Source: Turicibacter sp.
Lineage (GTDB): Bacteria > Bacillota_I > Bacilli_A > MOL361 > Turicibacteraceae
NCBI GenBank assembly: GCA_009780245.1
Contig: WRAJ01000002.1
Coordinates: 50,988 to 114,987 of the forward strand
Reading direction: 5' to 3'
DNA length: 64,000 nt
In this document: one piece after another, positions 8,787-56,907 of the stretch
Layout of the letters: the number at the start of each line of letters is the position of its first letter
Position numbering within the stretch: position 1 is the first letter of the stretch
Translations under genes and position numbers: made by a program
Notes under the pieces: generated by a model
The model's database searches: none
What the model saw: only the letters and a program-made list of their open reading frames with translations
Told to the model about the DNA's origin: nothing

Positions 8787-10280
8787 TTATAACCGTTCCA
8801 TAAACCGTTCTACACCTGCAAGCCCCGCGTCATCCAATTTATAAACCCCGCAACACGCTAGTATTTCAGCAAATTTCAATCCAACGTCTTGCTCAATCAA
8901 GGTTTCAATTTCTTTCTCGCTCAACCCAGCGCTTCGTTCCATTAATTCGAAAAACCACGGTTGATGCTTTTTTAAATCGGCACGTACTAAAATCTCAACG
9001 TCCGCGACCACTAATGCTTGTTTCAGCGTTTCAAGCTCCGAAACTAATCGCCCCGGCAAAATGGCAAGCCCCATCACTTCAATCAGACCGATGTTTTCTT
9101 TTTTCAAATGGTGATAGTGTTGATGGGGATGAAACATCCCATCTGGGTGCTCATCCGATGTTCGATTATTCCGCAACACAAGGTCGAGCTCATAATAGCC
9201 GTCTCGCAACCGAGCAATCGGTGTAAGCGTGTTATGCGGCTGTTCGTTTGTCATCGCATAAATACCACACAACGGATCACTATAACCACGCCAAGCCACC
9301 AAAATATGCGTCGCTAAATCAACCAATTGCACAACCTCTTTGCCCCTCAACCGCAACGTCGTCAGCGGCCAATGAAGCAACTGGGCAGCCACCTCATCAA
9401 ACTTCGGAATCGTAAACGTCCGTAAAACTGCCGCCCGCGCCATCGCAAATTCATAATCCCCACCTTGAAAATGCTCATGAACTAAAATGGACCCTCCCAC
9501 AATCGGCAAATCGGCATTTGACCCGACAAAATAATGATTAAACCGATCGACAAAGGCAAATAACCGCTCAAAAGTCAACCGTGAAATGGCCATCGGCTCG
9601 TGCTCTGCTTTCAACACGATGCAATGCTCGTTGTAATACACGTAAGGTGAATATTGCAAATACCATTGCTCCTCTACCAAAGTAACAGGTACAACGCGGT
9701 GATTTTGTCTAGCTGGCCGGTTCAAATTGCCAGCATAGCCAACGTTTTCTTTACATAGTACACACTTCGGATAACCGCTACTTGGTAGTGATTTCGCCAG
9801 CGCAATGGTTTTCGGATCTTTTTCCGGCTTTGATAAATTAATCGTTAAATCAAGCTCACCGTAAGCCGTCATCACTTTCCAACGGCGATCTTTTTTAATG
9901 CGCGCAGTCCGAATATAATGCGATGCCTGACTCAACTGATAAAAATAGTCCGTTGCTTTTCTCGGGGCTTGCGCGTAACGTGCCTCAAATTCCGCATTGA
10001 CTTCTGATGGTCGCGGCATGAGCAACCCCATCACCTTGGCATCAAAAAGGTCCCGTTCATCTACCGTGTCGTGTTTTACGATGTTTTTACGAACGGCCTC
10101 ATTCAAAATTACCCCTAATATTTCCTCAATCCCTTGATCATCCCTAGTCGCTTCACGCTCAAACGTCTCAACCTCTAATAATGCCAGCAATTGATTTACC
10201 ACAAAATCAGTATCAGCCGGTTGTAACAAACCTTGTTTTAATCCATAATCTACCAACTCGTTTATGGCTTGATTAATCAT
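8787..10280 (-). CDS. galT: Galactose-1-phosphate uridylyltransferase (family 2, long Firmicutes type)
   Basis: 497 aa with a family-2 GalT sequence (…LVHEHFQGG…). Immediately downstream of galK. Confidence 0.9.
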   Translation of the reverse strand: MINQAINELVDYGLKQGLLQPADTDFVVNQLLALLEVETFEREATRDDQGIEEILGVILNEAVRKNIVKHDTVDERDLFDAKVMGLLMPRPSEVNAEFEARYAQAPRKATDYFYQLSQASHYIRTARIKKDRRWKVMTAYGELDLTINLSKPEKDPKTIALAKSLPSSGYPKCVLCKENVGYAGNLNRPARQNHRVVPVTLVEEQWYLQYSPYVYYNEHCIVLKAEHEPMAISRLTFERLFAFVDRFNHYFVGSNADLPIVGGSILVHEHFQGGDYEFAMARAAVLRTFTIPKFDEVAAQLLHWPLTTLRLRGKEVVQLVDLATHILVAWRGYSDPLCGIYAMTNEQPHNTLTPIARLRDGYYELDLVLRNNRTSDEHPDGMFHPHQHYHHLKKENIGLIEVMGLAILPGRLVSELETLKQALVVADVEILVRADLKKHQPWFFELMERSAGLSEKEIETLIEQDVGLKFAEILACCGVYKLDDAGLAGVERFMERL

Positions 10281-10286
10281 TGACGC

Positions 10287-11468
10287 CTACACCACCTCTA
10301 ATTTTTTCGCGCCGTCACCAATGGCAGCCACGTAGAAGTCAGCTTCGTACCCGACTTTTTCCACGTAACCTTTCGCAACGGCTGCTTTTACCGCTTCCAA
10401 CTGATCCTGATGAACAAGAGCGATGGCACAACCCCCAAATCCCGCGCCCGTCATCCTAGCACCGAGCACACCTTCTTGTTGTCTGGTAAGCATCACAATG
10501 GTATCCAATTCAGCACCGGTGACCTCGTAATCATCGCGCAAAGAAAGATGCGATTGATCGAGCAAGTCACCAAATGCGACTAAATCACGGTTTGCCAGTG
10601 CTTGAATCGCTAATTTCACACGCTCGTTTTCAGTGATCGCATGTTTGGCACGTTTATACAAGTTCTCTTTGACCAGCACCTCTGAAACCCGATCAAATTC
10701 AGCAACGGTTAACTCACACAAGGCATTCAGGTTCGACGTGCCCTGTAAGAGCGCAAGGGCAGCTTCACATTCGGCACGACGTTCGTTGTATTTTGAATCA
10801 GCAAGCTCGCGTTGTTTGTTCGTGTTCATAATTAAAATGCGGTAGTCCTGTAGGTCACAATCCGCGTACGCGTAGCTTAAATCGTTGGTGTTAAGTTTAA
10901 TGGCTTGATCTTTCTTCCCCATGGCAATGGCAAACTGATCCATGATGCCGCAATTCACACCGACATAGTCATTTTCAGCTTTTTGACCGAGCTTCGCGTT
11001 TGTTATCCCATCGATTTCGAAGCCATTTAAGTCGCTCAGGATGAGCCCGATCAATACTTCTAATGAGGCAGAGGATGACAAGCCGGCACCGCTTGGAATA
11101 TTACCCGCGATATAAGCATTAAATCCCTGTTTCATTTCGTATCCTGCTTCCATGAACACAGCGATCACCCCTTTGACGTATACGCTCCAAGGTTCATCCG
11201 TTTTCCGAGCAAGGTCGGTTACCTCACATTCAATCACACCTTCTTTTGCGAAATTCTCGGAATATAACACCACTTTGCTATCCTCACGAGGGGTAACGGC
11301 TGCGTAGGTGCCGAACGTAATGGCCGCTGGAAAAACGAAGCCACCGTTGTAGTCAATGTGTTCTCCAATTAAGTTGATCCGCCCGGGCGCGAAGAACAAC
11401 TGCACTTCTTTGCTTGTCTCTGTTTTGAATACGTTGAAAAAGCGTGATTTTAATTCATTTAGCTCCAT
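10287..11468 (-). CDS. galK: Galactokinase
   Basis: 393 aa. GHMP kinase motifs GRINLIGEHIDYNGG and PSGAGLSSSASL. Confidence 0.9.
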   Translation of the reverse strand: MELNELKSRFFNVFKTETSKEVQLFFAPGRINLIGEHIDYNGGFVFPAAITFGTYAAVTPREDSKVVLYSENFAKEGVIECEVTDLARKTDEPWSVYVKGVIAVFMEAGYEMKQGFNAYIAGNIPSGAGLSSSASLEVLIGLILSDLNGFEIDGITNAKLGQKAENDYVGVNCGIMDQFAIAMGKKDQAIKLNTNDLSYAYADCDLQDYRILIMNTNKQRELADSKYNERRAECEAALALLQGTSNLNALCELTVAEFDRVSEVLVKENLYKRAKHAITENERVKLAIQALANRDLVAFGDLLDQSHLSLRDDYEVTGAELDTIVMLTRQQEGVLGARMTGAGFGGCAIALVHQDQLEAVKAAVAKGYVEKVGYEADFYVAAIGDGAKKLEVV

Positions 11469-12462: not shown

Positions 12463-15400
12463 CTAAAACCAGCAAGACTGATCAGAGTATCTATTCTCTT
12501 GCACCCAATTGCAGCAAATGTTGCATTGGCGATATTGGCGCTTTTTTACGGGAGGCTGGCACCAAGAAGGTGACACATGGTGACAACTGCAGCAATCACA
12601 TTGGCATGGCTGAGATGGTCTTGGAGGTTTAGGTGGTCGCGGCTTCGGGTGTGGCCGAGGTACTTTGACGATTGGTGGGTTCGGTTCAATCACTTCTACT
12701 TCGTTTCCGCCGTTTCCAGGGTTAACTACCGCAACATTCGGCTGCAATTGTCCAGCCGGGACGCGGTCGCTTAAAGTAACTGGCAAATAGACATGAGCCG
12801 TTTCACCCGGCGCAAGTGCAAATTCAGCCGAGAGCTTCAAGTTTTGATTATCACCTAAATTAACCAATCTTCCGCGGTCGCTGGCTGGCACGCCTGTCAA
12901 CCTAATGTATCTTGGTAAGACATCCTCAATCGTAAATGGATTGGCTGTTGGGACAGATCCTGTATTAGTAATGGTTAATGTGTAGTAGAAGGAATCACCT
13001 GGCATGAGCTCTTTGTCAGAGGCTTGCTTAGTAACTTCTAATTCTGGGACTCGAATCGCAACGATTGGTGGTACCAGTTCGATGACAAGATTCGGAGTTC
13101 CACTACCACCTGGATCAACCACGACGGTGTTTGGTGTCAACTGCCCTTCTGGGGCACTCGTAGAGGCGATAACAGGTAAGGTGATGGTGATGCTTTCACC
13201 AGCTGCGATGTGGTTGGCTACTGAAAGATTCAAGTCGGTATTCGTTCCGTTGTTCGTGACGATACTGCCATCTGACGCCGTTGGTGTGCCATTTAAAGAG
13301 ACGTACTGTGGTAGCGTATCAGTGATAGTAAACGGACTAGCGGTTGAAATGCTGCCGCGATTAGTAATCGTAATGATGTAGTTGAACGTTTCACCTGGTG
13401 AGATGGTATTAGAAGTATCGTTAACTTTGTTTACTTCTATTTTCGGATTAGCCACGATCGGTGGTGTGATTTCTACGCCTGGTGTTGGCGTATCGCCACC
13501 TCCTGGGTCTACCACAATCGTGTTTGCTGCTAGTTGTCCGGTCGGTGCATTGGTTGCTGCGACAACTGGAATGATCACCGTGATCGTCTCACCTGCTGGA
13601 ATGCTAGTTGCAACTGACAGGTTGAGGTTAGTATTCGTTCCCGAGTTAGTCACCGCACCTGCTGTTGAAGTCGGTGTGCCATTCAACGTCACATATGGTG
13701 GCAACGTATCGGTGATCGTAATCGGATTGCCCGTTGCAGCGCTTCCTGTGTTTTGAATGGTCACGATGTAATCAAAGGCATCGCCTGGTGCAATCGTGCT
13801 AGTGGTATCATTGGTTTTGGTGACGCTTAAGCCTGAGATAATAACGGTTGGTGGTGTAATTTCTATGCCTGTTGTTGGCGTATCGCCGCCTCCTGGGTCT
13901 ACCACAGCCGTATTTGACGCAAGTTGCCCCGCTGGTGCCGTGGTTGAGACCGTCACTGGTAACGTGATCGTGATCGTGCTACCTGCTGGAATCGCAGTTG
14001 CTACCGAGAGGTTGAGATTAGTATTCGTACCAGTGTTGGTCACTGTACCAGCGGTGGATGAAGGTGCGCCAGTTAAAGTGACATACTGAGGCAGTATATC
14101 GGTGATGGTGATTGGATTTTCTGTTGAAACAGAGCTAGTATTAGTAATCGTGATGATGTAGTTATAAGAAGTGCCCGGTGGAATTGGTGCCGTTGTATCG
14201 TTGGTTTTCGATACGGTTAATTCAGCTCTCACATCAGGATCAGGTCCCGTGACAATCGGTGGATTTGGATCCACACCTGTCCCTGTTCCGCCATTATCAC
14301 CTGGATCTGCGACAGCGGTATTAGCAGCTAATTGTCCCGCTGGTGCTGTGGTTGAGACGGTCACTGGTAAGGCGATGATAATGCTACCGTTTGGTGCCAA
14401 GCTCGTTGCTACCGAGAGATTAAGTGCCGTGTTCGTGCCTGAATTTGTTACTGCCGCCCCGTCTGATGAGGTTGGTGTGCCGGTTAACGTGACAGATGGT
14501 GGTAAGTTGTCGGTAATCGTAACTGGATTGGCCGTTGGAAGGGTCCCGATATTGGTGATGACCAAGGTATAGTTAAAAGTTGTCCCAGGTGGTATTGGCG
14601 CTGTTGTATCGTTGGTTTTTGTGACTGTGAGTAATGGGTCGGCGATGGTTGGTGGATTTGGTTCGATACCCGTTTCTGGATCACCACCGCCACCTGGATC
14701 AACGATTGCCGTGTTGGTCGTTAATTGTCCGGTTGGCGCATTTGTTGCTGCGGTAACCGGCAGTGTGATGGTGATGCTGCCGTTTGGCGCAAGGCTTGTT
14801 GCCACCGAGAGATTCAGCGCAGTATTAGTTCCTGAATTCGTCACCGCTGCGCCATCGGATGAAGTTGGCGTGCCGGTTAAGGTGACAGATGGCGGTAAGT
14901 TGTCCGTGATGGTAATGGGGTTCGCCGTTGCTAGTCCACCTGTGTTCGTAATGGTGATGATGTAGTTAAAGTTGGCGCCTGGTGGAATCAGAGTTGGTGC
15001 ATCGTTGGTCTTTTCCACGAGCAGTTGTGGTAAGGCAACGACAGGTGGATGTGGCTCGACCGCTGTCACTGGTGGACCATCACCACCAGGGTCTACCGTT
15101 GCTGCGTTTGCTGCTAGCTCACCAACAGGCGCTGTACTTGATACCGTTACTGGCAAGGTCACCGTGATACTACCGTTTGGTGCCAGACTGGTTGCTACGG
15201 CGAGGTTCAGCGCGGTATTAGTTCCTGAATTCGTCACTGCTGCGCCATCGGATGAAGTTGGCGTACCGGTTAAGGTGACAGATGGTGGTAAGTTGTCGGT
15301 AATCGTAATCGGATTCGCTGTTGCCGTGCTACCTATGTTTTGAATGGTCAACAAATAGTCAAAGGTCGTTCCCGGTGGTATTGGGCTTGCTGCATTGTTG

Positions 15401-16284
15401 CTCTTTGTCACCGTTATCCCATTGGTAGCTACTGTAGGTGGTGTGATCTCAGTGCCCGTTGCTGGTGGGTTGTTATTACCTGGATCCACGGTTGCGGCAT
15501 TGGCTAATAGCTGACCGGCTGGTGCAGTCGTTGATACCGTTACTGGCAGGGTCACTGTCGTTGTGCCACCTGGTGGAACACTGCCAGCTACTGACAAGTT
15601 CAAATTCGTTGCTGTGCCTGAATTCGTCACTGTTCCTGCTGGTGACGTCGGTGTACCAGTCAAAGTGAGATACTGAGGCAATGCATCCGTAATGGTAAAC
15701 GGATTTGCCGTTGCTTGATTCCCGTTGTTAGTAATGGTGATTGTATAGTTAAACGTTGCTCCTGGTGGAATTGATCCGACTACATCGCTGACTTTTGTCA
15801 CCGCCACCGGATTGGCACGGTAGTTGATATCGTAATTGTTTAAGACGTTATTGCCAATGGAAATGGCTGCTGGATCGGCAATGCTTGGCGTGCCGGTTAA
15901 GCTTGGCGCAGGTCCTGTGTAAGCAACGCTCGCCGTGTTCCCCTGAAATGAATCAGTCGGATCAATGACCAGATTCGGATAATTGGTCGGTGATACTGGT
16001 GGAAACGAGTAAGGTGGTGCCGTGGCATCGAAGATCGCACCGCCATCTCCCGTTGTTGCCGCGTTGCTTGTATAGGTTGTACCGGTTGAAGCGTACATCG
16101 GTGTTGTTTGTCCGGTTGCAGGTTTTTCTAAATAGACACCTCCCCCGTTATTGGTTGCCGTATTTGTGTTATAGGTACTTCCTGTATCCGTTACAGCACC
16201 GCCAGCCGCCACATAACCACCGCCCCCATTAGCAGCCGAGTTATTACTGATGGTATTGGCAGAATTAAAAATTAAAGTTGCCAT
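12463..16284 (-). CDS. 1273-aa leaderless repeat protein: N-terminal Pmp-like GGG beta-helix repeats, 8 DUF11 (conserved repeat domain) units, Pro/Lys-rich linker and Cys-cluster C-terminal tail
   Basis: GGAG RBS 8 nt before ATG. N-terminus MATLIFNSANTISNNSAANGGGGY has no signal peptide. Eight units of about 125-130 aa of the type VTKTND..PPG..F.Y...I.N.G...A.NP.TITD.LP..V.L.G.P....G.V.N.G..T.LNL. C-terminus PRPHPKPRPPKPPRPSQPCQCDCCSCHH...QCNICCNW...SCWF. Confidence 0.85.
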   Translation of the reverse strand: MATLIFNSANTISNNSAANGGGGYVAAGGAVTDTGSTYNTNTATNNGGGVYLEKPATGQTTPMYASTGTTYTSNAATTGDGGAIFDATAPPYSFPPVSPTNYPNLVIDPTDSFQGNTASVAYTGPAPSLTGTPSIADPAAISIGNNVLNNYDINYRANPVAVTKVSDVVGSIPPGATFNYTITITNNGNQATANPFTITDALPQYLTLTGTPTSPAGTVTNSGTATNLNLSVAGSVPPGGTTTVTLPVTVSTTAPAGQLLANAATVDPGNNNPPATGTEITPPTVATNGITVTKSNNAASPIPPGTTFDYLLTIQNIGSTATANPITITDNLPPSVTLTGTPTSSDGAAVTNSGTNTALNLAVATSLAPNGSITVTLPVTVSSTAPVGELAANAATVDPGGDGPPVTAVEPHPPVVALPQLLVEKTNDAPTLIPPGANFNYIITITNTGGLATANPITITDNLPPSVTLTGTPTSSDGAAVTNSGTNTALNLSVATSLAPNGSITITLPVTAATNAPTGQLTTNTAIVDPGGGGDPETGIEPNPPTIADPLLTVTKTNDTTAPIPPGTTFNYTLVITNIGTLPTANPVTITDNLPPSVTLTGTPTSSDGAAVTNSGTNTALNLSVATSLAPNGSIIIALPVTVSTTAPAGQLAANTAVADPGDNGGTGTGVDPNPPIVTGPDPDVRAELTVSKTNDTTAPIPPGTSYNYIITITNTSSVSTENPITITDILPQYVTLTGAPSSTAGTVTNTGTNTNLNLSVATAIPAGSTITITLPVTVSTTAPAGQLASNTAVVDPGGGDTPTTGIEITPPTVIISGLSVTKTNDTTSTIAPGDAFDYIVTIQNTGSAATGNPITITDTLPPYVTLNGTPTSTAGAVTNSGTNTNLNLSVATSIPAGETITVIIPVVAATNAPTGQLAANTIVVDPGGGDTPTPGVEITPPIVANPKIEVNKVNDTSNTISPGETFNYIITITNRGSISTASPFTITDTLPQYVSLNGTPTASDGSIVTNNGTNTDLNLSVANHIAAGESITITLPVIASTSAPEGQLTPNTVVVDPGGSGTPNLVIELVPPIVAIRVPELEVTKQASDKELMPGDSFYYTLTITNTGSVPTANPFTIEDVLPRYIRLTGVPASDRGRLVNLGDNQNLKLSAEFALAPGETAHVYLPVTLSDRVPAGQLQPNVAVVNPGNGGNEVEVIEPNPPIVKVPRPHPKPRPPKPPRPSQPCQCDCCSCHHVSPSWCQPPVKKRQYRQCNICCNWVQENRYSDQSCWF
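12714..15790 (-). repeat. Tandem coding repeats (8 x about 380 bp DUF11 units)
   Basis: Periodic protein repeats. The antisense frames also stay open (ORF-track entries 13004..15343), as expected for repetitive, compositionally biased DNA. Confidence 0.85.
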
Positions 16285-16431
16285 TGTTCATACTCCTTTC
16301 TTTAATCAGTTTTATAGGCAATGGCGAAAAGCTATTCAGTGAATGCGGAATATCACGTGTTTTCTGAAAATCTATTAATACGTGATAGTTTTTACTTTTC
16401 GCAATTGTCTAATCGGTTTTTAGTGGATGAC

Positions 16432-18947: not shown

Positions 18948-21900
18948 ATGCCAGCTACTATTCCTTTAACTTGTAATGCTACTTTCATTCAGTTTGTTGG
19001 TCAGCCGACCGAGTGGGTTAACATTAATCTTGTGACGGGAAAGCCAGTTTCACAAGGTTTTCTCAATCCAGCTGATTATGTTAACGCAATTGGTTACAAC
19101 ATTCTTGACAATTTTTTATACGGCTATGATTTGACAGTGAATCAAATTGTCCGCATTGATGCAGGCGGTAATCTGACGATGCTTGGACTTCCAACTGGGT
19201 TAACAGCAACGACAAATGGTTATAACACGGGTTGTTTTGATGATAGAGGTTATTTTTATCTTTATTTTTCTCAAATAGCGAGAATGTACGTGGTTGATTT
19301 GCGACCAGGCTCTGCCAGTTACATGCGACTTGTTGATCCAACAAACGGTTATGCTGTGCAGACTTCCTCGTATGGCGTTGCCCTTGTTAACGGCACACCG
19401 AATATTGCCGACTGGGTTTGGCTACCATCAACGGCAACAACGGGTAGTAACACCAATGGTTTTCTGTATGGCATTGTTAATGGTGGCGCGATGGCACGGG
19501 TTAATATTGATAACGCCCATGTCATCAATATGACAACTACCGGTCCAGCTTATGCGAGTTCTTACGGGGCAATGTCGGTGGATGTGGATTTAAACGTTTA
19601 CGCAGTTGCGAATGAAAATGGCAATGTGTATCGCTATACGATTAACGGTACCACCGCAACAGGGCTGTATTTTTCTAACACTTATTTTGATTCACACAAC
19701 GACGGGGCAATGTGCCGCATCGCGAAAGTTTTAGTTGATTTCGGTGATGCGCCTGATACGGGTATCGGCAATGGTGCTGGTAATTACAGTACCCTTCTTG
19801 CAAAAAATGGACCACGCCATCAGGTCATCGATGGGTTAATGCTCGGAACAACAATCACCGCTGAAGACGATGCTTATCAAAACACAACCGCAACTGGTGA
19901 TGATTTATTACAAGGCATTCAAGATGATGGACTCGCAACACCGTTGCCAATTCTTTCACCGAGTGCTACTTCTTACCAATTGAATGTCACAGCAACAAAT
20001 AACTTAGCAGCACCAGCAAATCTATACGCCTGGGTTGATTTTAACCAAAACGGCTTGTTTGAAGTCACAGAATCGACGGTTATTACCGTGCCAGCAAATA
20101 GTGGGACAGCGACTTATCCGCTGGATTTTACAGTCCCAAGCGGGACTAAACTCACCGCCGGTAATACTTTCGTACGCCTTCGTTTAACAACGGACACGTT
20201 AACTCAAGCTTCTGATAGTCTCGGACAAGATAACGCCAGCCTTGGACCAGCAGGCGACGGTGAAGTTGAAGACTACCTGTTGCAAATTAGCCCACTTGCT
20301 GATCTGCAAGTGACTAAAATAGCGGACGTCGATGCGATTCAAGTTGCCGATGAAATCACCTATACCATTACCATCACCAACAACGGTCCCGACACTGCTA
20401 CTAGCCCATTGCTAGTTGATGCCATCCCAGCCGAACTTAAAAGTCCGACCTACTCCATTGATAATGGCATCACTTGGCAAGATGTTCAACTCGGCTCAAT
20501 GACCCTACCTGATTTGACCGTTGGCAGTAGTTTTAACGTTTTAGTAAAAGGAATCGTTGTTAAATCAGCCACCGGTCAAATCGAGAACATCGCCACGGTT
20601 ACCGCAACGACACCCGATCCGGACATGAGCAATAACACGGCAACCGTCACAACAACCATTACCCCAACCGCGGACGTTGGCATCGTTAAAATCAACACGC
20701 CACCAAACGTTGCACCTGGCGATACGCTCACCTACAATCTCATTATTAGCAACGCCGGGCCAGTGGATGCGACTAATACCACAATCACTGATGTCGAAAC
20801 CAAAGCCCTGCTCAATCCTGAATTTTCATTCGACGGTTTCACTTGGAGTCCTTGGTCCGGCAACATCAATTACGGGACACTAGTAGCAGGAACTAGTACG
20901 ACCGTTTATCTGCGTGGAACAGTCGATGCAACAGGCGCTTCTTCTTTGATTAACGTTGCCAGCATTACCAGCGACATTCTTGATCCGAATCCCGATAATA
21001 ACACGTCATCAGCAACCACCACGATTACGGATGTGCCAATACCCACTGAAGCCGATCTTGACATTGAGAAAAGCTTAATCGTTCCGGATCTAGTTCCCGG
21101 CACGAACGCTAGTTACCAATTGGTCGTAACAAATCATGGCCCCTCAGCAGCTGAAAACATTGTCTTGATTGATCCCTTACCAAATGGTTTTGTTAGTCCG
21201 CAGTATTCAATTGATAATGGCACCACTTGGCAAGCTTGGACTGGAAGCCTCTCGCTCGACACAATGGCGGCGGACGAGGTGAAAACGGTGCTAATCGACG
21301 CTCTCCTATCACCAGCCACGCTGGATGCCATCACCAACACGGCGACGGTTTACGCCTCAACCCCAGATCCCGACATGACCAACAACACTTCCACCACCGA
21401 AACGGCCATCGACCGCCAAGCAACCATCAACATTACCAAAACCGCCAGCCCGAACCCAGTGAACGTCGGTAACGATTTAACTTACACCGTCTACGTTCAA
21501 AACGAAGGACCATCTTACGCACAACATGTCGTTGTCAAAGATGTCGTTCCAACCGCTGTAACAAACCCTGTTTTTTCAACCGATGGCATTAGTTGGTCAC
21601 CTTGGACCGGGGCATATACAATCGATAGCCTACCCTCTGGCGGCGCCCGCACCCTGTTAATCCGTGGGACAGTCTCAAGCAGCGATGATGAAGTTTTGAC
21701 TAATAGTGCTAGCGTTACCAGTGACATTACACCAGAAACACGTGCAACAACTGATACGCGGGTGAGGAATCAAGCAGACCTCGGAATTGTAAAATGGACA
21801 ACTACGAATAGCGTTGTCGTGGGTGATACACTTGCTTTCACCTTAACCGTCACGAATAATGGCCCTTCGCCAGCAACCGATGTGCTAGTCACCGATCCTG

Positions 21901-22910
21901 TACCATCAGGGCTCGCTGATGTCACGTATTCGCTTGATCAGCTTGATTGGCAACCATGGGACGGATCGTATTTACTTGGTACGCTTAATAATGGCGATGT
22001 TGCTGTGGTTTATCTACGTGGTGTCGTAAAGGCAGCAGCTGCGAATCAACTGATTAACACTGCGGTTGTGACTTCATCTACCGATGATCCGAATTTAAAC
22101 AACAACTCGAATAGCTTTGAAGTCAATGTTCAACAATCGGCTGATTTAGCCATTACAAAAATTGCTGATAAAGCGACACTTGCGAGTGGCGATACCGTGA
22201 CCTATACCTTAGCAGTAACCAATAACGGTCCAAGTGACGTTGCAACTGCGACCTTAGCCGATGAAATCCCAATCGGTTTAACCGCCGTCGAATTCAGCAC
22301 GAACGGAACCGATTGGCAGCCGTGGGTGAGCCCGTATCAGATCACTGCCCTTGCAAGTGGCGAAACGACCAGCATCCAAATCCGTGGCACTGTCACGAGT
22401 GATGCAATCAACTTTATCAGTAACCTTGCGACGATCAGCAGTAGCATTCCCGATCCGAACCCAACCAATAATACCGCCGTCAACACCGTCCCAGTTCCAA
22501 TAGTATGTCCGGAGTGTCCTGACCCGCCAACGCCAGACCCTACGGGTGCCGATTTATCCATTACCAAAACAACTAATAAGTCACACGCCCATCGCTGTAA
22601 ACACATCCAGTACATCATTGCCGTTACCAACAACGGACCAGAAATTGCGGATGCAGTTGTTTTAATCGATGAAGTGACTGATTTACTAAAGCCAATGTAT
22701 TCCATTAACCGCGGTCGTTCATGGTTACCGTGGCAAGATAAACTCGCCCTCGGTGACATGCCTGCAAATCAAATAAAAATCATCCATATTGCCGGGAAAA
22801 TTTCAAATTGGGCCGAATGTCCCTTAACGAACACCGCGACCGTTTATAGCCAAACGACTGACCCAAATCCTATTAATAATTCGGCAACCGTGAAAACTAG
22901 GTTGTGTTGA
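18948..22910 (+). CDS. 1320-aa leaderless protein: about 260-aa N-terminal domain of unknown function, GEVED domain, about 7 DUF11 repeats
   Basis: Strong RBS (ACGGAGG). MPATIPLTCNATFIQF has no signal peptide. DFGDAPD...GDGEVEDY (GEVED domain). Repeats of the type L.ITK.A......GD..TYT..V.NNGPS.A.......P.GL....S.DG..W..W. CPECPDPPTPDP linker before the last repeat. Confidence 0.85.
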   Translation: MPATIPLTCNATFIQFVGQPTEWVNINLVTGKPVSQGFLNPADYVNAIGYNILDNFLYGYDLTVNQIVRIDAGGNLTMLGLPTGLTATTNGYNTGCFDDRGYFYLYFSQIARMYVVDLRPGSASYMRLVDPTNGYAVQTSSYGVALVNGTPNIADWVWLPSTATTGSNTNGFLYGIVNGGAMARVNIDNAHVINMTTTGPAYASSYGAMSVDVDLNVYAVANENGNVYRYTINGTTATGLYFSNTYFDSHNDGAMCRIAKVLVDFGDAPDTGIGNGAGNYSTLLAKNGPRHQVIDGLMLGTTITAEDDAYQNTTATGDDLLQGIQDDGLATPLPILSPSATSYQLNVTATNNLAAPANLYAWVDFNQNGLFEVTESTVITVPANSGTATYPLDFTVPSGTKLTAGNTFVRLRLTTDTLTQASDSLGQDNASLGPAGDGEVEDYLLQISPLADLQVTKIADVDAIQVADEITYTITITNNGPDTATSPLLVDAIPAELKSPTYSIDNGITWQDVQLGSMTLPDLTVGSSFNVLVKGIVVKSATGQIENIATVTATTPDPDMSNNTATVTTTITPTADVGIVKINTPPNVAPGDTLTYNLIISNAGPVDATNTTITDVETKALLNPEFSFDGFTWSPWSGNINYGTLVAGTSTTVYLRGTVDATGASSLINVASITSDILDPNPDNNTSSATTTITDVPIPTEADLDIEKSLIVPDLVPGTNASYQLVVTNHGPSAAENIVLIDPLPNGFVSPQYSIDNGTTWQAWTGSLSLDTMAADEVKTVLIDALLSPATLDAITNTATVYASTPDPDMTNNTSTTETAIDRQATINITKTASPNPVNVGNDLTYTVYVQNEGPSYAQHVVVKDVVPTAVTNPVFSTDGISWSPWTGAYTIDSLPSGGARTLLIRGTVSSSDDEVLTNSASVTSDITPETRATTDTRVRNQADLGIVKWTTTNSVVVGDTLAFTLTVTNNGPSPATDVLVTDPVPSGLADVTYSLDQLDWQPWDGSYLLGTLNNGDVAVVYLRGVVKAAAANQLINTAVVTSSTDDPNLNNNSNSFEVNVQQSADLAITKIADKATLASGDTVTYTLAVTNNGPSDVATATLADEIPIGLTAVEFSTNGTDWQPWVSPYQITALASGETTSIQIRGTVTSDAINFISNLATISSSIPDPNPTNNTAVNTVPVPIVCPECPDPPTPDPTGADLSITKTTNKSHAHRCKHIQYIIAVTNNGPEIADAVVLIDEVTDLLKPMYSINRGRSWLPWQDKLALGDMPANQIKIIHIAGKISNWAECPLTNTATVYSQTTDPNPINNSATVKTRLC

Positions 22911-27419: not shown

Positions 27420-30400
27420 TTAAGAATCGAATAATCGAAGTAACATTCTAGTCAACGGAGCGCTTAAAAAAGGAGGTAATGGCGGTAGCGGTGGAATCGG
27501 TGGAACGCCTGGGATTGGTGGCCCTGGAATCGGAGGAATGCCCGGTATGTCTGGCAGTCCTGGTAAGCCTGGGATCCCAGGAATTCCCGGTACTCCTGGC
27601 ACACCTGGAATCTCAGGTAAACTCGGAATCTCAGGGATGCCTGGTAAACCTGGTCTTTCTGGTACCTCTTGCTCTGTGGCGACCACAAATGACAATTCAC
27701 TCACGTTTAGTCCTGACCAAACGTGCTGATTTCTTGTTTCTGCATAAGCGTCACCTAATAAGCCAGGTGCATAAGCCAGACGAGCTGCTAGGTTCAAATA
27801 CGCGTTAAGTGCTTCATCTGCTGTTAGGAAACCATTAACCGCAAACACAGGGCTATGCGCTAATGTTCTTGGCTCAACACCTGCAGCGTCCTCTACCGCA
27901 TCTACGACACCTGGGAGGTTACGGAATGGCAAGTTGCGTACAGGAATACTACTGAATAGTCGATCTGTCGCCGGCACAACACTGTAATTGTCAATGGCGA
28001 AAATCGTTACTTCTGTTTCACCATCTAAATCGGTTAATTCAATTTCGAAATAACCGTCAGCATCGATCGTGATACGAGTAGCCTCTTCATCACCAATTTG
28101 CGCAAACACAGCAAGGTTATGTTGTGTACTGACAGCTCTTTGTGGTGCCTCTGCACGCCAAATATCAAATGTCACATTAGCTTCTTCAGCCGTTGCTACC
28201 CACTCATCAAAGGCATTTCCTACTAGTGTGACGTCTGAGTCTGTGACAACAATTGTCGCACCGTTTTCAACGATCTGGTCATCAATTGAAACGTGAAGCT
28301 CAGGTGCTGTGTTATCGACAGAGAACTCAAACAGCGTATCAAATGTCCATACCCAGTCATTGTGGAACTCGGCTTGGTACACTTCTAAAATGATAACAAA
28401 ATCACCTTCGTCAAGTGTTCGCCAATCAGCACCTTCTGTCCCACGATGAACAAAGTTTCCTTCGCCGATAAGGGCATGGCTAGTTAAATCTCCTCTTTCG
28501 TCTTCACAATGCAGCGGGAAGAACCCTACTGGTAAGTAAAGCCCGTCGAAGATAACCGCACGATGTTGTTGACCTAGTGTCAAACGTGCGCCAGGATTAT
28601 AAGCTGCACCTCCAAAAATCTGATTAGGTCCCGCACCTGCAGGAACTTCATTGCTACCAGCAAATCCAACAAGTGCATCTGCAAACTCATCACTCATCCA
28701 ATTGTTTCGGTTTAAACCTTCAACATCTTCAAAGATCCATGCTCTTGTTGCAAAACTATTATTTGGCGTAAAGAGCAGTCCAAGTTCACTACTTGTGACA
28801 TTTTGTGCCTCATCTCCTGTTGAAATAACAGGTCGGTATAAACTCATATTAGTTAAAACTGGTGCACGTTCTCCCACAACAGCGGCAAATGGTAACACAG
28901 CGACCGTTTCACTACCAGCGGATACATTGATGAATCCTTCGTAGTGTCCAACTGCTGCCGTTACTGGCACCGTCATGGTGACATTAAAGTCTACAGACGA
29001 GTTTGCAGGAACTGTGATTTGACCAACGCTTGTCGGTCCAACACTGGTCACGATAAACACACCGTTGTCCGCAGCTGATTGATTGACTGGGTGATCATAA
29101 TCAATAAACTCAGTTTCAAGTGTATAAGTAATCGCTGCATTGCTATTGTTCACAATCGTTGCCGTTAACGTTCGGTCAATGGTTGTTTCTCGTTGATCTG
29201 GTAAATATCTGTTCACACCACCAAAGCTAAACGAACCTGTTCTGGTTGAGGCAAAGTCAGTCGGCGTTTGATCAAATGGATCTAAGAATGACGCCACACG
29301 TGGATCTAAAAGAACGCGATCATAAGTGACGTAGATAACACTATTGGCGTGAGCAGCTGCATACACATCGGCTTGTCCAGCTCCCGTGTCAAACACACTA
29401 CCGCGGATATTGGCTTGTGTTTGTGCGGCTGCTGTGAAGTGCGGCACATCTAGCCTAATCGCCGTGTTCATTAAACGCACTTTGATTTCTTCATTGCGCC
29501 ACTGTCCACCATTTTCACGGCTGTATTCCACAAGTAAAGCCACAGCACCTGCGATATGCGGTGCAGACATCGACGTTCCACTTGAGCTGGCATAGCCGGT
29601 GCCATGCCAGCGTGGATTAGCTGACCAAACGTTCACACCGTGAGCGCCAATATCTGGCTTGATTTCATAACTCATGCCAATTGGACCACGAGATGAAAAG
29701 TTTGCCAGTCTAACAGCTGGGACAACGATATAAGTACCTGTTAAGTAAAACGTACCATAATCGACATCTGATGCTGCAATTTCTTCTGCTAATGCGAGCC
29801 CTGCAGGGTTCTCAATGTTAAACATTGGCACCCATGCCGCATTTACCCCTTGAGCCGCAGGTGGCGCCTGTCCCGGACCGTTAATGGTTAATACACCAGC
29901 AAGTCCTAAGTGACGAGCTTGAGCTGAAACGTCAACAAAAGGCGATCCACGACGAACTAAGACAAAGGCACCTGCTAACTCATCTAAACCGTAGGCATCA
30001 ACTAATAATTCAAAGTCATTTGCTGTACCAGAACCTGGCTCATCTACTGGACTGCCACTTCCTTCATGGCGCGGCATCACAAAAATACGATTGGTGCCAT
30101 CTTGTGGGAATCCATCCATGTCACTAATTAAGCGTCCATTTTCTACACGAAGAGGTGCCGTGTTATTCGTAACCGGCAGTAGTGGTGCATTTAATTCAGT
30201 GCTCAATCCATTAAAGGTAGCACCAATTGCCTCATAAGCATCGCTCATGGTATCCTGGAACGCAGCAACCGTAATCGCCTTTGTTGCAGGAGCTGGGTCA
30301 GTTGTCGTATAGAAGCCATTCAAACCAGCACCAGAGTTACCAGCCGAAAGGACGAATGTAATTTGATGATCCTCAGAAAGCATCAAGTTATTGATTGCAG

Positions 30401-31757: not shown

Positions 31758-32041
31758 TCGTAACATCTCCTTTTTGTTATCCGACAATATTATCAAATCT
31801 CATCTAATATAATCAATGGTTTCTACATTTTTTTTAAGGATGATAACGTTCCCAAAGTCGAAATCACCTCAGAGATACACATTCTATTTCTATCGAATGT
31901 CTCTTGCTATTCTGATAGAATTGTTGATTTTAGTCAGAACTAAAGCACTACCTCACATCATTTGAGCACACTTTCTCTATTAAATGCGAATTTATTCGCA
32001 AACTTGTGGTAGATTATTTTCACTTTTTTATCGTTCCACAT

Positions 32042-43132: not shown

Positions 43133-43549
43133 ATGATGATGGCTGGGTTTTTAATCATGTTAAAAATTTTATCTGCAGGCATCGGTGTTTTTTTTAGCTG
43201 GTTTTTTGGTAGTGTGGATATGATGATTTACGTACTTGTCGTGTTAATCGTGGTGGATTACATCAGCGATGTGATGAAAGGTGTCATTACCAAACAGTTA
43301 AGCAGCGCCGCTGGGACACAGGCAATTTTTCAGAAGATTTTGATTATTTTGCTAGTCGGTGTTTCGAATATCATTGATATTTATCTGATTCGCAGCGAAA
43401 ACGCGCCTTTAAGAACCGCCGTCACGTTCTTTTACATCGCCAATCAGGGCTTGTCGTTGATTGAAAACGCAGCGATCATCGGGTTGCCGGTACCCGAATC
43501 GTTGAAAGAATCTTTATTGAAACTGCAGAAGGGGAAAAAGGATGCTTAA
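43133..43549 (+). CDS. Phage-holin family protein (Holin_4 / LL-H / TcdE-like), standalone
   Basis: 138 aa, 3-4 TM. ...VLIVVDYISDVMKGVITKQLSS..G.QAIFQKILI...FYIANQGLSLIENAAIIGLPVP..L, typical of this holin family. No endolysin or other phage gene nearby. Confidence 0.7.
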   Translation: MMMAGFLIMLKILSAGIGVFFSWFFGSVDMMIYVLVVLIVVDYISDVMKGVITKQLSSAAGTQAIFQKILIILLVGVSNIIDIYLIRSENAPLRTAVTFFYIANQGLSLIENAAIIGLPVPESLKESLLKLQKGKKDA

Positions 43550-50407: not shown

Positions 50408-50568
50408 CAAAAAATCTTCCTACTCTTGATAAGTAGAAAGATACAAGGTTGCCTTTAAAAGCAGCTGCGTTATTTCTTCTCATCAATCAGGTATTGGCAC
50501 CGTTCCTTGTAAAAGGCGGTTGCCGTGACGTCATAGGGCCTGTCCCTCGATCACTCGCGATAAGATAT
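50408..50568 (-). promoter_or_regulatory. SAM-I (S-box) riboswitch with terminator expression platform
   Basis: Minus-strand read: CTTATCgcgagtgatcGAGGGAcaGGCCCtatGAcgtcacGGCAACCgcc...acGGTGCCAAtaCCtgattGATGAG. Followed by TCTTTCTACTtatcaagAGTAGGAAGATTTTTT. Confidence 0.85.
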
Positions 50569-50618: not shown

Positions 50619-50934
50619 CTGTTTTTTGAAAATTTTTCATTTTTATGTCAAAAACATTTTGACTTTCTCTTTTAGACTTGCAAATCAAAAAGGTGATTTT
50701 CTGATAGGCTCACAATCACAACTTTTAATATCAAAACTTAATCCTTAATCATATCTTACAATAGTAGACATAATAAACAATTGCGAAACACTTATTACTG
50801 CACCTTTTTGCTTGTGTAAGAGCCATTAAGGTGCACAGTTGCACCCTTTTGATAGCATTTGAAGCTTTGAGGTGCACATCGATTGCTTCATCACACAGTT
50901 TCGCCATATAAGTCCAGAAAGGAGACATTTTAGT

Positions 50935-52269
50935 ATGAATCGAAACAGAAGAGAGTGTGGTTACTATTCACCTTGTATTTGTCAATGTGAGACGATTGTT
51001 TGTTGTCCACCCAGCCATGGTTGTCAAGGTGAGCGTGGACCAACCGGTGCTAGAGGACCACAAGGACCGATAGGGCCAGCAGGAAGTGGTACCACAGGAC
51101 CAGCTGGCCCACAAGGATTTCCAGGTGAGCGCGGACCAACCGGTTCTCAAGGACCTCAGGGACTTCAAGGGATGCAGGGTGAACCAGGATCGCAAGGCCC
51201 ACAAGGACCTCAAGGTATCCAAGGTGAAGCAGGACCTCAGGGAGAACAAGGTTCTCAAGGTATCCAAGGCGAGCAAGGTCTTCAAGGCATTCAGGGTGAA
51301 CCGGGATTGCAAGGACCGCAAGGATCTCAAGGCATTCAAGGTGAAATAGGCCTACAAGGGGTGCAAGGTGATCAAGGTGAGACTGGTCCACAAGGACCTC
51401 GTGGACCGCAAGGTCTTCAAGGTGAGCAAGGATTACAAGGGATTCAAGGTGAAGCAGGTGAGCAAGGATTAGAGGGTCCTCAAGGTGAGCGAGGCCCACA
51501 AGGAATCCAAGGATCAACTGGTCCTCAAGGGCCACAAGGTGCGCCAGGCACGCCCGGTACTCAAGGCATTCAAGGGGAACAAGGCGTAACTGGACCGCAA
51601 GGACCTCAAGGTGAAGAAGGTGCGCCAGGTTCAACTGGGCCACAGGGACCTCAAGGTCTGCAAGGCCTTCAAGGAGAACCGGGTGAGCAAGGGTTACAAG
51701 GAATCCAGGGGATCCAGGGAATCCAAGGCGAAATAGGGCCAACTGGTCCACAAGGAGCAATAGGCATTCCAGGAAACACAGGCCTAACAGGTGCCACTGG
51801 TACTGACGGATTGCAAGGCCCAACCGGTCCAACAGGAGCACCAGGAGCAGGATTAACCTCAACGGCACTAAGTGCAGCGAACACATCAGCACCAACCATT
51901 GTGGTGGGAACTGCGGCCAATGGTGGAACAGGCATACCACTCCCTACCTTCACTTATGGACCGGGGCCTGGCTTTGTACCAGATGCCACAAACACGAATT
52001 TCACCGTCACAACCACTGGCGATTATTTAGCAACCTATAACGTCAACTTAACCACCCCTGTTAACGATAATACAGCTATTTACGTTAATAATGTTGCTGC
52101 CGTTGGTACGATTCAAAGTTCGGCAACGCCAACAGATCAGTATAGTAATACCAGCATTTTACACCTAAATGCCGGTGATGTCGTGCGACTAACCATATTT
52201 GGTGGTAATACACCCGTCACATTAACACCAGGAACAGGCGCCATTATGACATTAACACAAATTGCATAA
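50935..52269 (+). CDS. BclA-like collagen-repeat protein: Cys-cluster N-terminus, about 90 G-X-Y triplets, C1q/TNF-like (BclA C-terminal type) domain
   Basis: [31 protein letters not shown], then [19 protein letters not shown]...GAPGAG, then a roughly 135-aa C-terminal domain ([32 protein letters not shown]) with the same block pattern as the B. anthracis BclA C-terminal domain (TGFYKITVIAN..IQVNGVPVPGT..ASIIIEKVA). GGAG RBS upstream. No signal peptide. Confidence 0.85.
51020..51860 (+). repeat. Collagen-like G-X-Y coding repeat
   Basis: Uninterrupted triplet periodicity ([12 protein letters not shown]). Antisense and shifted frames remain open (ORF-track artefacts). Confidence 0.9.
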
Positions 52270-56227: not shown

Positions 56228-56382
56228 TTTCCTAACCTCTTTTATCATTCTTTTACGGTAAATTATAGCGTTTACCGACAGAGAAAGCAATATTTATTTT
56301 GATTTCGTTCTTATTTTATCACCAATAAATGGGCTTATGCATAAGATAACAACAAATGCGAAAAACAGGAGTGATGAGCGTG

Positions 56383-56907
56383 ATGTGTTGTTGTAGAGAT
56401 CAAAGAAATAATAGAGATTGTGGTGACATTGTTTGGAGAAAGCGTTGCGTTTGTTGGTGTGAACCAGTCTGCGTAAGGCGAAGAAGCAATCGATGCGACA
56501 ATCACATAGAAGGGATGAGTCTGCAATTAACAACTAGTGGTTGCCACCCACTCCCAACCGGATGCCCGATTGTCTTCGATGAAATACTAACTAAAAATAG
56601 CCGTGCCATGTGCTGCCACGAAGATACCGGCGTGATTGAAGTTCGTCGATGTGGCACCTACGCGATCGACTGGGACGTTGTCGTCGAAAACTCTGAAAAA
56701 GCTTGTATTTGTTTTTCACTAGAAATCAATGGAAAAATTACTTCTAGCTCAACCCTACCAGCAACATCTGGACAGCTAACCGGAAGTGCGTTAATCGAGG
56801 TAGACACCCTCCCAACCACCATCCGGTTAATCAATAACACCGGTTGTGCCGTGGAACTTTCAGATTTTTCACCTGTTGCACACTTAAGGATTATGACCGT
56901 GAAGTAG
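56383..56907 (+). CDS. Cys-cluster N-terminus + C1q/BclA-CTD-like domain protein (about 174 aa), no collagen stalk, no signal peptide
   Basis: MCCCRDQRNNRDCGDIVWRKRCVCWCEPVCVRRRSNRCDNH..., then a domain with the same block pattern as the collagen protein C-terminal domain (CGTYAIDWDVVVEN / LEINGKITSSS / AHLRIMTVK). AGGAG at 56367-56371. The start could be GTG 56380 or ATG 56383; the ORF-track start at 56356 lies upstream of the RBS. Confidence 0.6.
   Translation: MCCCRDQRNNRDCGDIVWRKRCVCWCEPVCVRRRSNRCDNHIEGMSLQLTTSGCHPLPTGCPIVFDEILTKNSRAMCCHEDTGVIEVRRCGTYAIDWDVVVENSEKACICFSLEINGKITSSSTLPATSGQLTGSALIEVDTLPTTIRLINNTGCAVELSDFSPVAHLRIMTVK

Follow-up and report, generated by a model that had tools for sequence, protein, structure and literature searches.

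How could fibre-type surface proteins that carry neither a Sec signal peptide nor a sortase motif be displayed on the outside of a bacterium? The question is raised by a 64-kb stretch of DNA (here called the window; GC content ~44%) from a metagenome-derived genome labelled Turicibacter sp., in which three otherwise different proteins each have a dense cluster of cysteines at one terminus: a 1273-amino-acid (aa) protein of CLIPPER/DUF11 repeats (the giant), a 444-aa protein with a collagen stalk and a BclA_C head (the collagen protein), and a 174-aa protein with a BclA_C-type head and no stalk (the small protein). The reading that we favour, with slightly more confidence than doubt, is that a Turicibacter-like endospore former displays the three proteins as fibres on its outermost spore layer, where disulfides formed through their Cys tags would fasten them. 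The window is part of a 273.7-kb contig (European Nucleotide Archive assembly ERZ27257297), and gene content was checked in the window together with 18 kb of additional flanking DNA (82 kb in all).

Terminal cysteine clusters on three leaderless fibre-type proteins

The motif C.C.C is found in exactly three of the 53 window proteins (18,848 aa), compared with ~0.01 occurrences expected from the Cys frequency of the other window proteins (0.9%). A search for at least four Cys within 12 residues returned the same three real proteins only, the two other six-frame matches lying in non-coding frames. All three termini read identically to the sequences quoted in the initial annotation, and in each protein the cluster is terminal, at the end away from the presumed display domain. 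In the giant, all 10 Cys fall within the last 47 residues (positions 1227-1271; tail ...PRPSQPCQCDCCSCHHVSPSWCQPPVKKRQYRQCNICCNWVQENRYSDQSCWF), whereas the other two proteins carry their clusters at the N-terminus (Table 1).

The start codons of all three genes are preceded at 8-10 nucleotides (nt) by AGGAG, and those of the 444-aa and 174-aa proteins were chosen identically by independent gene callers, in agreement with the initial description of these starts as defined by ribosome-binding sites. The reported lack of signal peptides holds as well: the maximum 12-aa Kyte-Doolittle hydropathy at the N-termini of the Cys-tagged proteins is at most 1.4, versus 3.6 and 2.7 for two secreted window proteins. 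Hydropathy and motif checks detected no signal peptide, membrane segment or LPxTG in these three proteins or in two neighbouring fibre proteins; the maximum 19-aa hydropathy is 1.59, and both the Sec signal and the combination of LPxTG and membrane segment that define sortase-anchored adhesins are missing. All three architectures are of the surface-fibre type, yet they lack Sec and sortase signals.

Searches of the tags against Pfam, NCBIfam and PDB sequences found no known domain, metal-binding families included (best PDB E 0.33, which is noise). These results bear on the view that the clusters bind metal (Zn, Cu or Fe-S) or buffer redox, in the manner of metallothioneins or zinc knuckles, and do not anchor anything covalently. 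CxC, CC and CxCH(H) are indeed typical ligand patterns, represented by CSCHH in the CLIPPER tail and by CHCH and CECH in homologues of the small protein, and thiols would be free for metal in a reducing mother-cell cytoplasm. However, no metal-binding family was matched, the tags are predicted to be disordered, and metal binding leaves unexplained why they sit strictly at the termini of three fibre-type proteins. We consider this view very unlikely.

A sigma-K-type promoter and a conserved tag in the small-protein family

By sequence, the small protein matches BclA_C (PF18573) with 19.7 bits (E 8e-4), below the cut-off of 38. An AlphaFold2 (AF2) model built on homologues gave a predicted local distance difference test (pLDDT) score of >90 for the head and <50 for residues 1-49, so that the ~45-residue tag is predicted to be disordered. 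Top matches of the modelled head in Foldseek were F-BclA of B. thuringiensis (9h38; E 2e-10, template modelling (TM) score 0.84-0.86, root mean square deviation 1.6 A), followed by BclA of B. anthracis (1wck/3tyj, TM 0.85), both ahead of C1q and TNF proteins. The small protein is predicted to be BclA_C-like, a likeness that is weak by sequence and clear by modelled fold.

Conservation analysis identified five homologues, all metagenomic, with 48-60% identity. A Cys-rich N-terminus is part of the called product in four of the five, and in the fifth (P0006) it is encoded by in-frame upstream sequence that the gene caller had cut off. The family consensus reads MCxC...CG..IVW[RK][RK]RC[IV]CW[CYF]EPV..R.R...C.C[HNR][IF]EG and is followed by the jelly roll. 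The tag is under selection, the Cys positions in MCxC, RC[IV]CW and C.C being kept across the six members of the family.

For the promoter search, the consensus for sigma-K was taken from PMC5749712 ([a/c]AC[a/c]-N16-CATA-N3-TA). Upstream of the small gene there is a site that matches it perfectly (Table 1) and is the only perfect AC-N16/17-CATAnnnTA in promoter position on both strands of the window (128 kb). A block cAC[c/a/g]-N16-CATAA[G/A]AT[A/G] is common to the small gene and homologues from four other contigs, in which the flanking DNA is unconserved. The conserved promoter spacer holds TGGGC, which we take to resemble the GerE box RWWTRGGY of B. subtilis. No other single result argues as strongly as this putative sigma-K promoter for late synthesis in the mother cell of one or more of the three proteins.

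Gene calls for this family are prone to error at the 5' end. The NCBI entry FWE07_01000, from the same Turicibacter sp. MAG, is identical to the small protein from a downstream Met on, so that the Cys tag is missing from the NCBI model. Two family members in all (P0001, and P0006 at L004, 9845-10396) are begun at the downstream Met by NCBI and a gene caller and so lack the entire tag (130/131 aa instead of 174/183), and the called start codon of P0002 (L013, 883) falls inside the sigma-K -10 element. Loss or mis-starting of the Cys-rich N-terminus by gene callers or NCBI in three of six family members amounts to an annotation problem.

Further upstream sequences are common to the Cys-tag genes. 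At up to one mismatch, the 12-mer ACAATTGCGAAA occurs at three sites in the window, all of them upstream of the three Cys-tag genes, and the 9-mer TTTCGCCAT lies 30-40 nt before the ATG of the giant (16321-16329, -) and of the collagen gene (50899-50907, +), near the ribosome-binding site; the window holds five copies of this 9-mer versus 1.1 expected. A regulator might bind ACAATTGCGAAA, which could be matched to neither a promoter nor a known regulator. The orthologous spacer between the genes on contig L099 (see below) does not contain it. Its interpretation as a SpoIIID site was rejected because of this absence, because a consensus so degenerate has little force, and because Turicibacter sanguinis has no SpoIIID (PMC13492147).

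Table 1. Positions in the window of the fibre-protein genes, their parts and their upstream elements.
Feature	Position	Strand	Remarks
CLIPPER/DUF11 giant, 1273 aa	12463..16284	-	Sequence reads as quoted in the initial annotation
Giant, Cys-rich C-terminal tail, aa 1227-1273	12466..12606	-	10 Cys; ends SCWF
Giant, Pro/Lys/Arg/His-rich spacer VKVPRPHPKPRPPKPPRPSQP	12607..12669	-	Between last CLIPPER domain and Cys tail
Giant, eight tandem CLIPPER/DUF11 repeats	12670..15801	-	~130 aa each; predicted rigid stalk
Giant, N-terminal region, aa 1-161	15802..16284	-	GGG[VAI] repeats (polymorphic-membrane-protein type); presumed distal tip; no signal peptide
12-mer ACAATTGCGAAA, exact	16397..16408	-	113 nt upstream of the giant's ATG
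420-aa leaderless protein, presumed beta-helix	16432..17694	-	GGG[IV] repeats; directly upstream of the giant
GEVED + 7x CLIPPER protein, 1320 aa, leaderless	18948..22910	+	Divergent transcription; last residue Cys
12-mer ACAATTGCGAAA, second exact copy	50777..50788	+	147 nt upstream of the collagen gene's ATG
Collagen/BclA_C protein, 444 aa	50935..52269	+	7 Cys, all in residues 8-30
Collagen protein, Cys-rich N-terminal tag	50935..51024	+	7 Cys
Collagen protein, G-X-Y region	51019..51852	+	92 triplets, one short interruption; Pfam Collagen 154.9 bits
Collagen protein, BclA_C (C1q/TNF-like) C-terminal head	51871..52266	+	
Sigma-K-type promoter CACC-N16-CATAAGATA	56320..56348	+	35 nt upstream of the small gene; perfect consensus match
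12-mer ACAATTGCGAAA, one-mismatch copy	56352-56363	+	In the small gene's leader
Small BclA_C-type protein, 174 aa	56383..56907	+	9 Cys in first 38 residues, 8 in body
Small protein, Cys/Arg-rich N-terminal tag	56383..56511	+	9 Cys
Small protein, BclA_C-type jelly-roll head	56512..56904	+	No collagen stalk

The CLIPPER giant, its neighbours and its relatives

The giant matches Pfam DUF11 (PF01345) in eight stretches with 190.9 bits (cut-off 24.6) and DUF7927 with 160 bits, and in addition the isopeptide-forming domain TIGR04226 (120.7 bits, cut-off 30) and TIGR01451 (50 bits, cut-off 24). Alignment of the repeats revealed a Lys/Asp/Asn trio that is kept in all eight (the K of V[TESN]K, the D of TI[TE]D and the N of ..N..V[VA][DN]P). 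Its spacing resembles that of Lys715/Asp748/Asn806 in 9IFR (PMC12617251), and the trio could form an isopeptide bond within each repeat. At its N-terminus the giant has a region with a sub-threshold Chlam_PMP match (E 0.006), and this region resembles the adjacent 420-aa protein (E 2e-5). No Pfam or NCBIfam family was found for the latter, and its AF2 single-sequence model was unusable (pLDDT 39); the label beta-helix, which we use for it, refers to its repeat pattern and to sub-threshold Chlam_PMP matches only.

The divergently transcribed 1320-aa protein matches Pfam DUF11 with 429.5 bits and GEVED with 51.4 bits; it is a candidate member of the same system. This GEVED protein starts with MPATIPL (18948-18968), which is spaced like the hook M-P-psi-psi-x-P-psi of F-type endospore appendages (F-ENA; PMC12357932). 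The resemblance is weak and may be coincidence, and no DUF4183 partner was seen.

Relatives of the giant were found on three contigs. L097, the contig of the BclA_C homologue P0008, encodes an 838-aa leaderless protein 218 nt downstream of a collagen/BclA_C gene. This protein is similar in its N-terminal half to the 420-aa window protein (31% over 203 aa) and in its CLIPPER repeats to the giant (31-37%), and it ends ...KCRPKCCCIPCNCYYCCCCNACFRSCSSNSSTYCQSIDLTEDSALYSCW with a Cys tail KCRPKCCCIPCNCYYCCCCNACFRSCSSNSSTYCQS...YSCW. An alignment of this tail with that of the giant shows SC-x3-S-x-[ST]-[WY]-CQ and a terminal SCW common to both. As to the other genes of L097, the collagen/BclA_C gene (8850-10390, +) has neither an in-frame start codon nor an N-terminal domain before its G-X-Y region, the sole ATG being in another frame, for which a frameshift in the assembly, a pseudogene or a start of an unusual kind could account. 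Genes with lytic polysaccharide monooxygenase, ricin-lectin and fn3 domains and a gene for an M60-like peptidase lie on the contig as well.

An alignment of the eight CLIPPER repeats together with those of L097 was too diverged for a metagenome scan; a narrower alignment worked and identified L099 and L100. L099 carries a close orthologue of the beta-helix and giant gene pair, the two genes being 37 nt apart, and the contig stops short of the tail region. L100 (607-9225, +) encodes a 2873-aa homologue of the giant with no Cys in the first 2041 residues and 35 in the last 830. These are distributed over a serine-rich linker with repeated CxxC (CSSC, CTSC, CPSC, CSPC) and subsequent Cys-containing C-terminal domains, so that L100 reaches a Cys-rich proximal end in a different way. 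A design in which tip and stalk are free of Cys and the C-terminal end is rich in it is thus a recurring one.

In the relatives, genes of the beta-helix, CLIPPER-Cys and BclA_C kinds lie side by side or are fused (L097, L099). This supports a functional link between these kinds of protein; that the three Cys-tagged proteins form a single assembly would go beyond it.

The collagen protein and its relatives

The head of the collagen protein (residues 313-444) matches PF18573 with 82.5 bits (cut-off 38). Together with the collagen match, the DUF11 score of the giant and the fold of the small protein (TM ~0.85), this confirms the domain calls made initially for the three proteins. The last Cys of the tag is located within the first G-X-Y triplet (GCQ).

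Searches with the tag and head of the collagen protein yielded few relatives. One of them, P0009, is encoded in another Firmicutes metagenome-assembled genome (MAG) from the same sample (contig L008); it starts MSNCNCCCLRGPRG..., followed by collagen and BclA_C, and has AC-N17-CATAGTATG upstream and spo0A 9 kb away. A second collagen protein on this contig begins MTNHCDCGRCNICCMRGPRG. Cys-cluster N-termini placed right before collagen thus recur in neighbouring spore-forming lineages. This second collagen-like protein of L008 (2422-3576, +, and 472-1275, -), with the N-terminus MTNHCDCGRCNICC, has a repeated GCTGERGP that puts Cys inside the triple helix. Its C-terminal domain is not BclA_C, and it shares the contig with spo0A and the Cys-tagged collagen/BclA_C gene P0009.

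The region upstream of the collagen gene in the window has two further features. The gene is divergent from a homoserine dehydrogenase/methionine biosynthesis operon headed by an S-adenosylmethionine (SAM; S-box) riboswitch (50477-50566, -; 73.3 bits, gathering score 44.4) with a near-consensus sigma-70 promoter (50618-50590). Its own long leader (50830-50880, +) contains a terminator-like hairpin GGTGCACAGTTGCACC followed by CTTTTG, with a second GGTGCAC copy 35 nt on. The hairpin could be an attenuator or merely the end of an upstream transcript.

Cysteines next to or within a triple helix also suggest another role, in which the clusters staple the trimers or multimers of each protein itself and not a common layer, and the three proteins need not share an assembly. 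N-terminal Cys of C1q, collectins and adiponectin drive oligomerisation, as does the Cys knot of type III collagen. Two of the three window proteins carry C1q/BclA_C heads, which are obligate trimers in known structures, the GCQ triplet is where a trimer staple would sit, the Cys within the GCTGERGP helix point to inter-chain bonds, and the tags are not homologous. However, it is not obvious why a CLIPPER stalk, which is monomeric, should require stapling as a trimer, 7-14 Cys far exceed what a staple requires, the conserved non-Cys residues of the small family (IVW, EPV, Arg runs) look like a docking peptide, and the cluster is always opposite the display domain. We regard self-stapling in place of anchoring as unlikely, though as the main alternative; the two are not mutually exclusive.

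A model for attachment to the outermost spore layer

In the favoured reading, in which the clusters anchor fibres to the spore, the three proteins would be synthesized in the mother-cell cytoplasm late in sporulation and, because they would be made there, no Sec signal or sortase motif would be needed. They would be deposited on the outermost spore layer (crust, exosporium or appendages) with their display modules outward: the giant would present a tip of the polymorphic-membrane-protein (PMP) type on a stalk of eight CLIPPER domains locked by isopeptide bonds, the collagen protein a BclA_C/C1q head carried by ~80 nm of collagen, and the small protein its BclA_C head alone. At the spore-proximal end, the Cys-rich segment, which is short, disordered and for the most part basic, would be the connector and would dock onto a Cys-rich basal-layer protein, other fibres, or both. 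Once the spore surface meets oxidising conditions, intermolecular disulfides would lock the docked connector. The Cys tail of the CLIPPER protein would occupy the position of the LPxTG anchor in a vegetative fibrillar adhesin. In this model we infer that the proteins are located on the spore, that disulfides form, that one layer receives all three proteins and that these belong to one structure.

Weighing the spore-surface assignment

The giant, the beta-helix protein and the GEVED protein are identical to NCBI MCL2559003.1, MCL2559004.1 and MCL2559006.1, which belong to a MAG labelled Turicibacter sp. In a scan of GTDB species genomes with GlpK, which is weakly informative on taxonomy, the top match was a termite-gut Turicibacter MAG with merely 68%, and because of this low value we take the organism to be a distant, uncultured relative of Turicibacter; going by MAG names, its source community is probably that of a termite gut. 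Cultured Turicibacter are spore formers (PMC13492147, PMC11165905). T. sanguinis sporulates and has Spo0A, all four sporulation sigma factors including sigma-K, GerE and a CotY/CotZ homologue, and its spore has a crust-like outer layer of unknown protein composition (PMC13492147). BclA-like or DUF11 proteins are not mentioned for T. sanguinis in these two papers (PMC13492147, PMC11165905). From the Turicibacter label, the sporulating cultured relatives and the promoter motifs we infer that the source organism sporulates.

Several results weigh against a common place of the three proteins on a spore. No sporulation genes were found in the window or in the 18-kb flank, and because none of the organism's sporulation genes lies in the 82 kb read, sporulation of this MAG rests on taxonomy and promoter motifs. 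A scan with two peptide patterns did not find the small-protein family in 185,579 GTDB species genomes, cultured Turicibacter included, and owing to its absence there the published data on T. sanguinis are not directly transferable. The three Cys-tag genes are scattered across 44 kb amid housekeeping genes and do not form a common operon, and no candidate receiver (CotY/Z, ExsY or CsxA-like) was seen.

Nor does a convincing sigma-K promoter precede the CLIPPER or collagen genes: the best candidates before the giant, beta-helix, GEVED and collagen genes match 5/6 in the -10 element or are mis-spaced, e.g., AC-15-CATTGCCTA for the giant. Sigma-70-like promoters were likewise not found before these four genes, bar a 9/12 match before the GEVED gene. 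The tail of the giant also has no detected relatives by direct search. A phmmer search with the 68-aa tail against 1.84 billion representative proteins matched only itself, and since it missed the L097 tail it was too insensitive; a word-index search with the last CLIPPER domain and tail gave no match, self included, and an exact-peptide scan of Joint Genome Institute metagenomes with the tail gave none. In the 18 kb beyond the window there are no further Cys-tag proteins. Of the spore-surface link drawn in the initial annotation, the part that finds support is the conserved sigma-K promoter of the small gene and the Turicibacter label, whereas the giant and collagen genes have no convincing candidate for such a promoter and the 82 kb contain no sporulation genes.

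Could the proteins have nothing to do with spores, and be vegetative adhesins that leave the cell by release or by non-classical export, or what is left of phage tail-fibre genes, collagen and C1q-like heads being present in phage tails? Fibrillar adhesins of vegetative cells typically contain CLIPPER, GEVED and PMP-like modules (PMC12617251), the small protein weakly matches a phage 'collagen like minor tail' PHROG family (E 6e-4, 20 bits), and the neighbourhood is devoid of sporulation genes as described. Against this, the surroundings are housekeeping genes with no phage context, the remaining PHROG scans were empty, and the conserved sigma-K promoter and the lack of Sec, sortase and membrane signals in five neighbouring fibre proteins are hard to square with vegetative export. 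An origin outside sporulation therefore seems highly improbable to us, and the assignment to the spore remains the one we favour.

The tags are alike in kind

Whether the three clusters are the same kind of element, as the initial annotation put it, was examined by profile comparison. The profile of the small-family tag scores below zero against the collagen tag and the CLIPPER tail in HMMER after bias correction; with the composition correction off, p is ~0.06 for the collagen tag and ~0.07 for the CLIPPER tail versus composition-preserving shuffles. On these values, homology of the three tags was dropped. The tags are alike only in kind, i.e., in composition and the CxCxC motif, and to this extent the initial wording holds, whereas homology is not demonstrable.

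A few suggestive fragments are nevertheless common to pairs of tags. RN..CG...C[IV]C.CE.[IV] occurs in both N-terminal tags. PRPHPKPRP is present in the spacer of the giant and in the N-terminal linker of the small-protein homologue P0004, in each case just before a Cys motif (CxCH in P0004), and CNICC is present in the tail of the giant and in the L008 collagen tag. The connectors of Ena3A and L-BclA, too, have a CC motif in common and 'no particular sequence homology' (PMC11362473).

Dissimilar tags on dispersed genes, one of them an orphan tail, would also be expected if three unrelated Cys-rich ends without a common function had come together by coincidence. Yet three occurrences of C.C.C, all terminal and all on leaderless fibre proteins, contrast with an expectation of about one hundredth of an occurrence, a CLIPPER relative encoded next to a BclA_C gene (L097) has a Cys tail too, and two exact 12-mers are confined to the upstream regions of Cys-tag genes. 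Coincidence is extremely improbable in our view. We put forward, more tentatively than the spore-fibre reading itself, that in a Turicibacter-like lineage degenerate terminal Cys clusters may act as a modular 'address and rivet' by which fibres unrelated in structure (the giant with a C-terminal tag, the collagen and small proteins with N-terminal ones) pass from the mother-cell cytoplasm directly onto one Cys-rich spore layer, a Sec- and sortase-independent counterpart of LPxTG anchoring.

Comparison with known spore-surface and adhesin systems

The principle of leaderless spore fibres riveted by Cys connectors is known from Ena1/Ena3A, L-BclA and the proposed S-BclA. In the L- and S-type endospore appendages (L-/S-ENA) of the B. 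cereus group, Ena1/Ena3A and L-BclA are mother-cell products that lack a signal peptide, and Cys/CC connectors lock the subunits and the collagen/C1q tip fibre by disulfides (PMC11362473). A collagen/C1q protein with a 5-Cys N-terminus (AGE80398.1) was proposed as the tip of S-ENA (PMC12357932). In contrast, the clusters in the window are denser (7-14 Cys, CxCxC), one of them is C-terminal on an isopeptide-stalk protein, one belongs to a collagen-less C1q head, and the lineage is Turicibacter-like. Pfam scans of the five proteins gave no match to DUF3992 (Ena), and the intergenic gaps hold no small Ena-like open reading frame. CC and CxCxC motifs are present in the tags but are too loose to be diagnostic of an Ena connector; the predicted disorder of the small protein's tag recalls the flexibility of the Ena connectors (PMC11362473).

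The closest fold to the small head, the C-terminal domain of F-BclA (9h38), is a component of F-ENA. There is also a precedent for DUF11 stalks on spores: F-Anchor-3 of Clostridium aceticum has up to four DUF11 domains joined to a module that becomes part of the lattice of the exosporium (PMC12357932), and CrdA-C of B. cereus are further DUF11 proteins on spores (PMC12357932, PMC5749712). However, F-ENA docks by the hydrophobic hook M-P-psi-psi-x-P-psi and not by Cys (PMC12357932), and the hook is absent from the three Cys-tagged proteins. No DUF4183 or CsxA-like domain was found here in Pfam and NCBIfam scans.

The closest described domain combination is that of the Clostridium taeniosporum appendages, where DUF11 proteins (CRD1/2, P29a/b) and collagen-like proteins (GP85/CL2) are co-encoded with sigma-K promoters (PMC5749712). 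Cys-rich termini are not reported there (the word 'cysteine' is absent from PMC5749712) and a BclA_C head is not mentioned; the genes are clustered within 9.6 kb, whereas those in the window are spread over 44 kb.

CotY/ExsY/CotZ, CdeC/CdeM and CsxA are outer-layer proteins with many Cys that form disulfide-cross-linked lattices, and are the likely type of receiver for the tags. In these proteins the Cys are spread through a globular lattice body, unlike the window proteins with their Cys confined to a short terminal tag. Pfam and NCBIfam scans at E<=0.01 found no CotY/CotZ/ExsY, CdeC/CdeM or CsxA family, the presence of CdeC/CdeM/CsxA models in these libraries not being confirmed. The comparison with Ena, BclA_C and CdeC suggested initially therefore returned BclA_C heads, but no DUF3992, DUF4183 or CotZ/ExsY bodies.

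The exosporium leader of BclA, which binds BxpB/ExsFA, is of the LIGPTLPPIPP type. The leader of BclA proper is missing from the window proteins, in which the N-termini of 30 and 43 residues have Cys clusters and no Pro-rich stretch. The chlamydial outer-membrane complex combines the DUF11 repeats of OmcB, PMP-type GGA[ILV] repeats and disulfide-linked Cys-rich proteins in a dormant, resistant form. It is Sec-exported and Gram-negative, with distributed and not terminal Cys, so that its resemblance to the window proteins is an analogy only; the DUF11 link of OmcB is mentioned in PMC5749712. The order of tip, isopeptide-locked stalk and C-terminal attachment is the same in the CLIPPER/DUF11 fibrillar adhesins from Gram-positive bacteria (PMC12617251). 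These adhesins have a signal peptide and an LPxTG/sorting domain, whereas the giant has neither and carries a Pro/basic spacer and a Cys tail instead.

The initial annotation had not recognised the combination of the three proteins as a described system. This is only partly right, because Cys-connector fibres (L-BclA, AGE80398.1) and DUF11 on spores (F-Anchor-3, and with collagen under sigma-K in C. taeniosporum, PMC5749712) were already known. We found no description in the literature of a C-terminal Cys tail that replaces the sortase signal on a CLIPPER adhesin architecture, or of BclA_C heads that lack collagen, carry a Cys/Arg tag of 45 residues and form a conserved family, nor of either of them in the Turicibacter lineage.

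Other genes in the window

Two further genes encode proteins of a different kind. A 1458-aa secreted subtilisin-like (S8) protease with a signal peptide and C-terminal PGIPG/PPIPP repeats (27420-31796, -) is a separate, Sec-dependent surface protein. A lone 138-aa membrane protein that by eye resembles a phage-type holin (43133-43549, +) lies between the histidine and methionine operons, with no phage genes near.

Implications for the Turicibacter lineage

Spore surfaces govern adhesion, aggregation, persistence and transmission of gut spore formers. To our knowledge, almost nothing is known of them outside Bacillus and Clostridium. The first ultrastructural study of Turicibacter spores (2026) described an outer layer resembling a crust, left it without explanation and did not name any fibre protein. 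Fibres that assemble by themselves and are locked covalently could also serve as robust protein materials or as anchors for spore display. If our reading, which is drawn wholly from MAG sequence data, is true, it would provide a rule for recognising spore-surface proteins in metagenomes: fibre architecture without a leader, a Cys cluster at one terminus, and a promoter for sigma-K. The three proteins would then be concrete candidate components of the spore surface in the Turicibacter lineage, and the disulfide-connector principle of the Ena type would hold in a further bacterial family, at the C-terminus as well, and for adhesins with isopeptide stalks.

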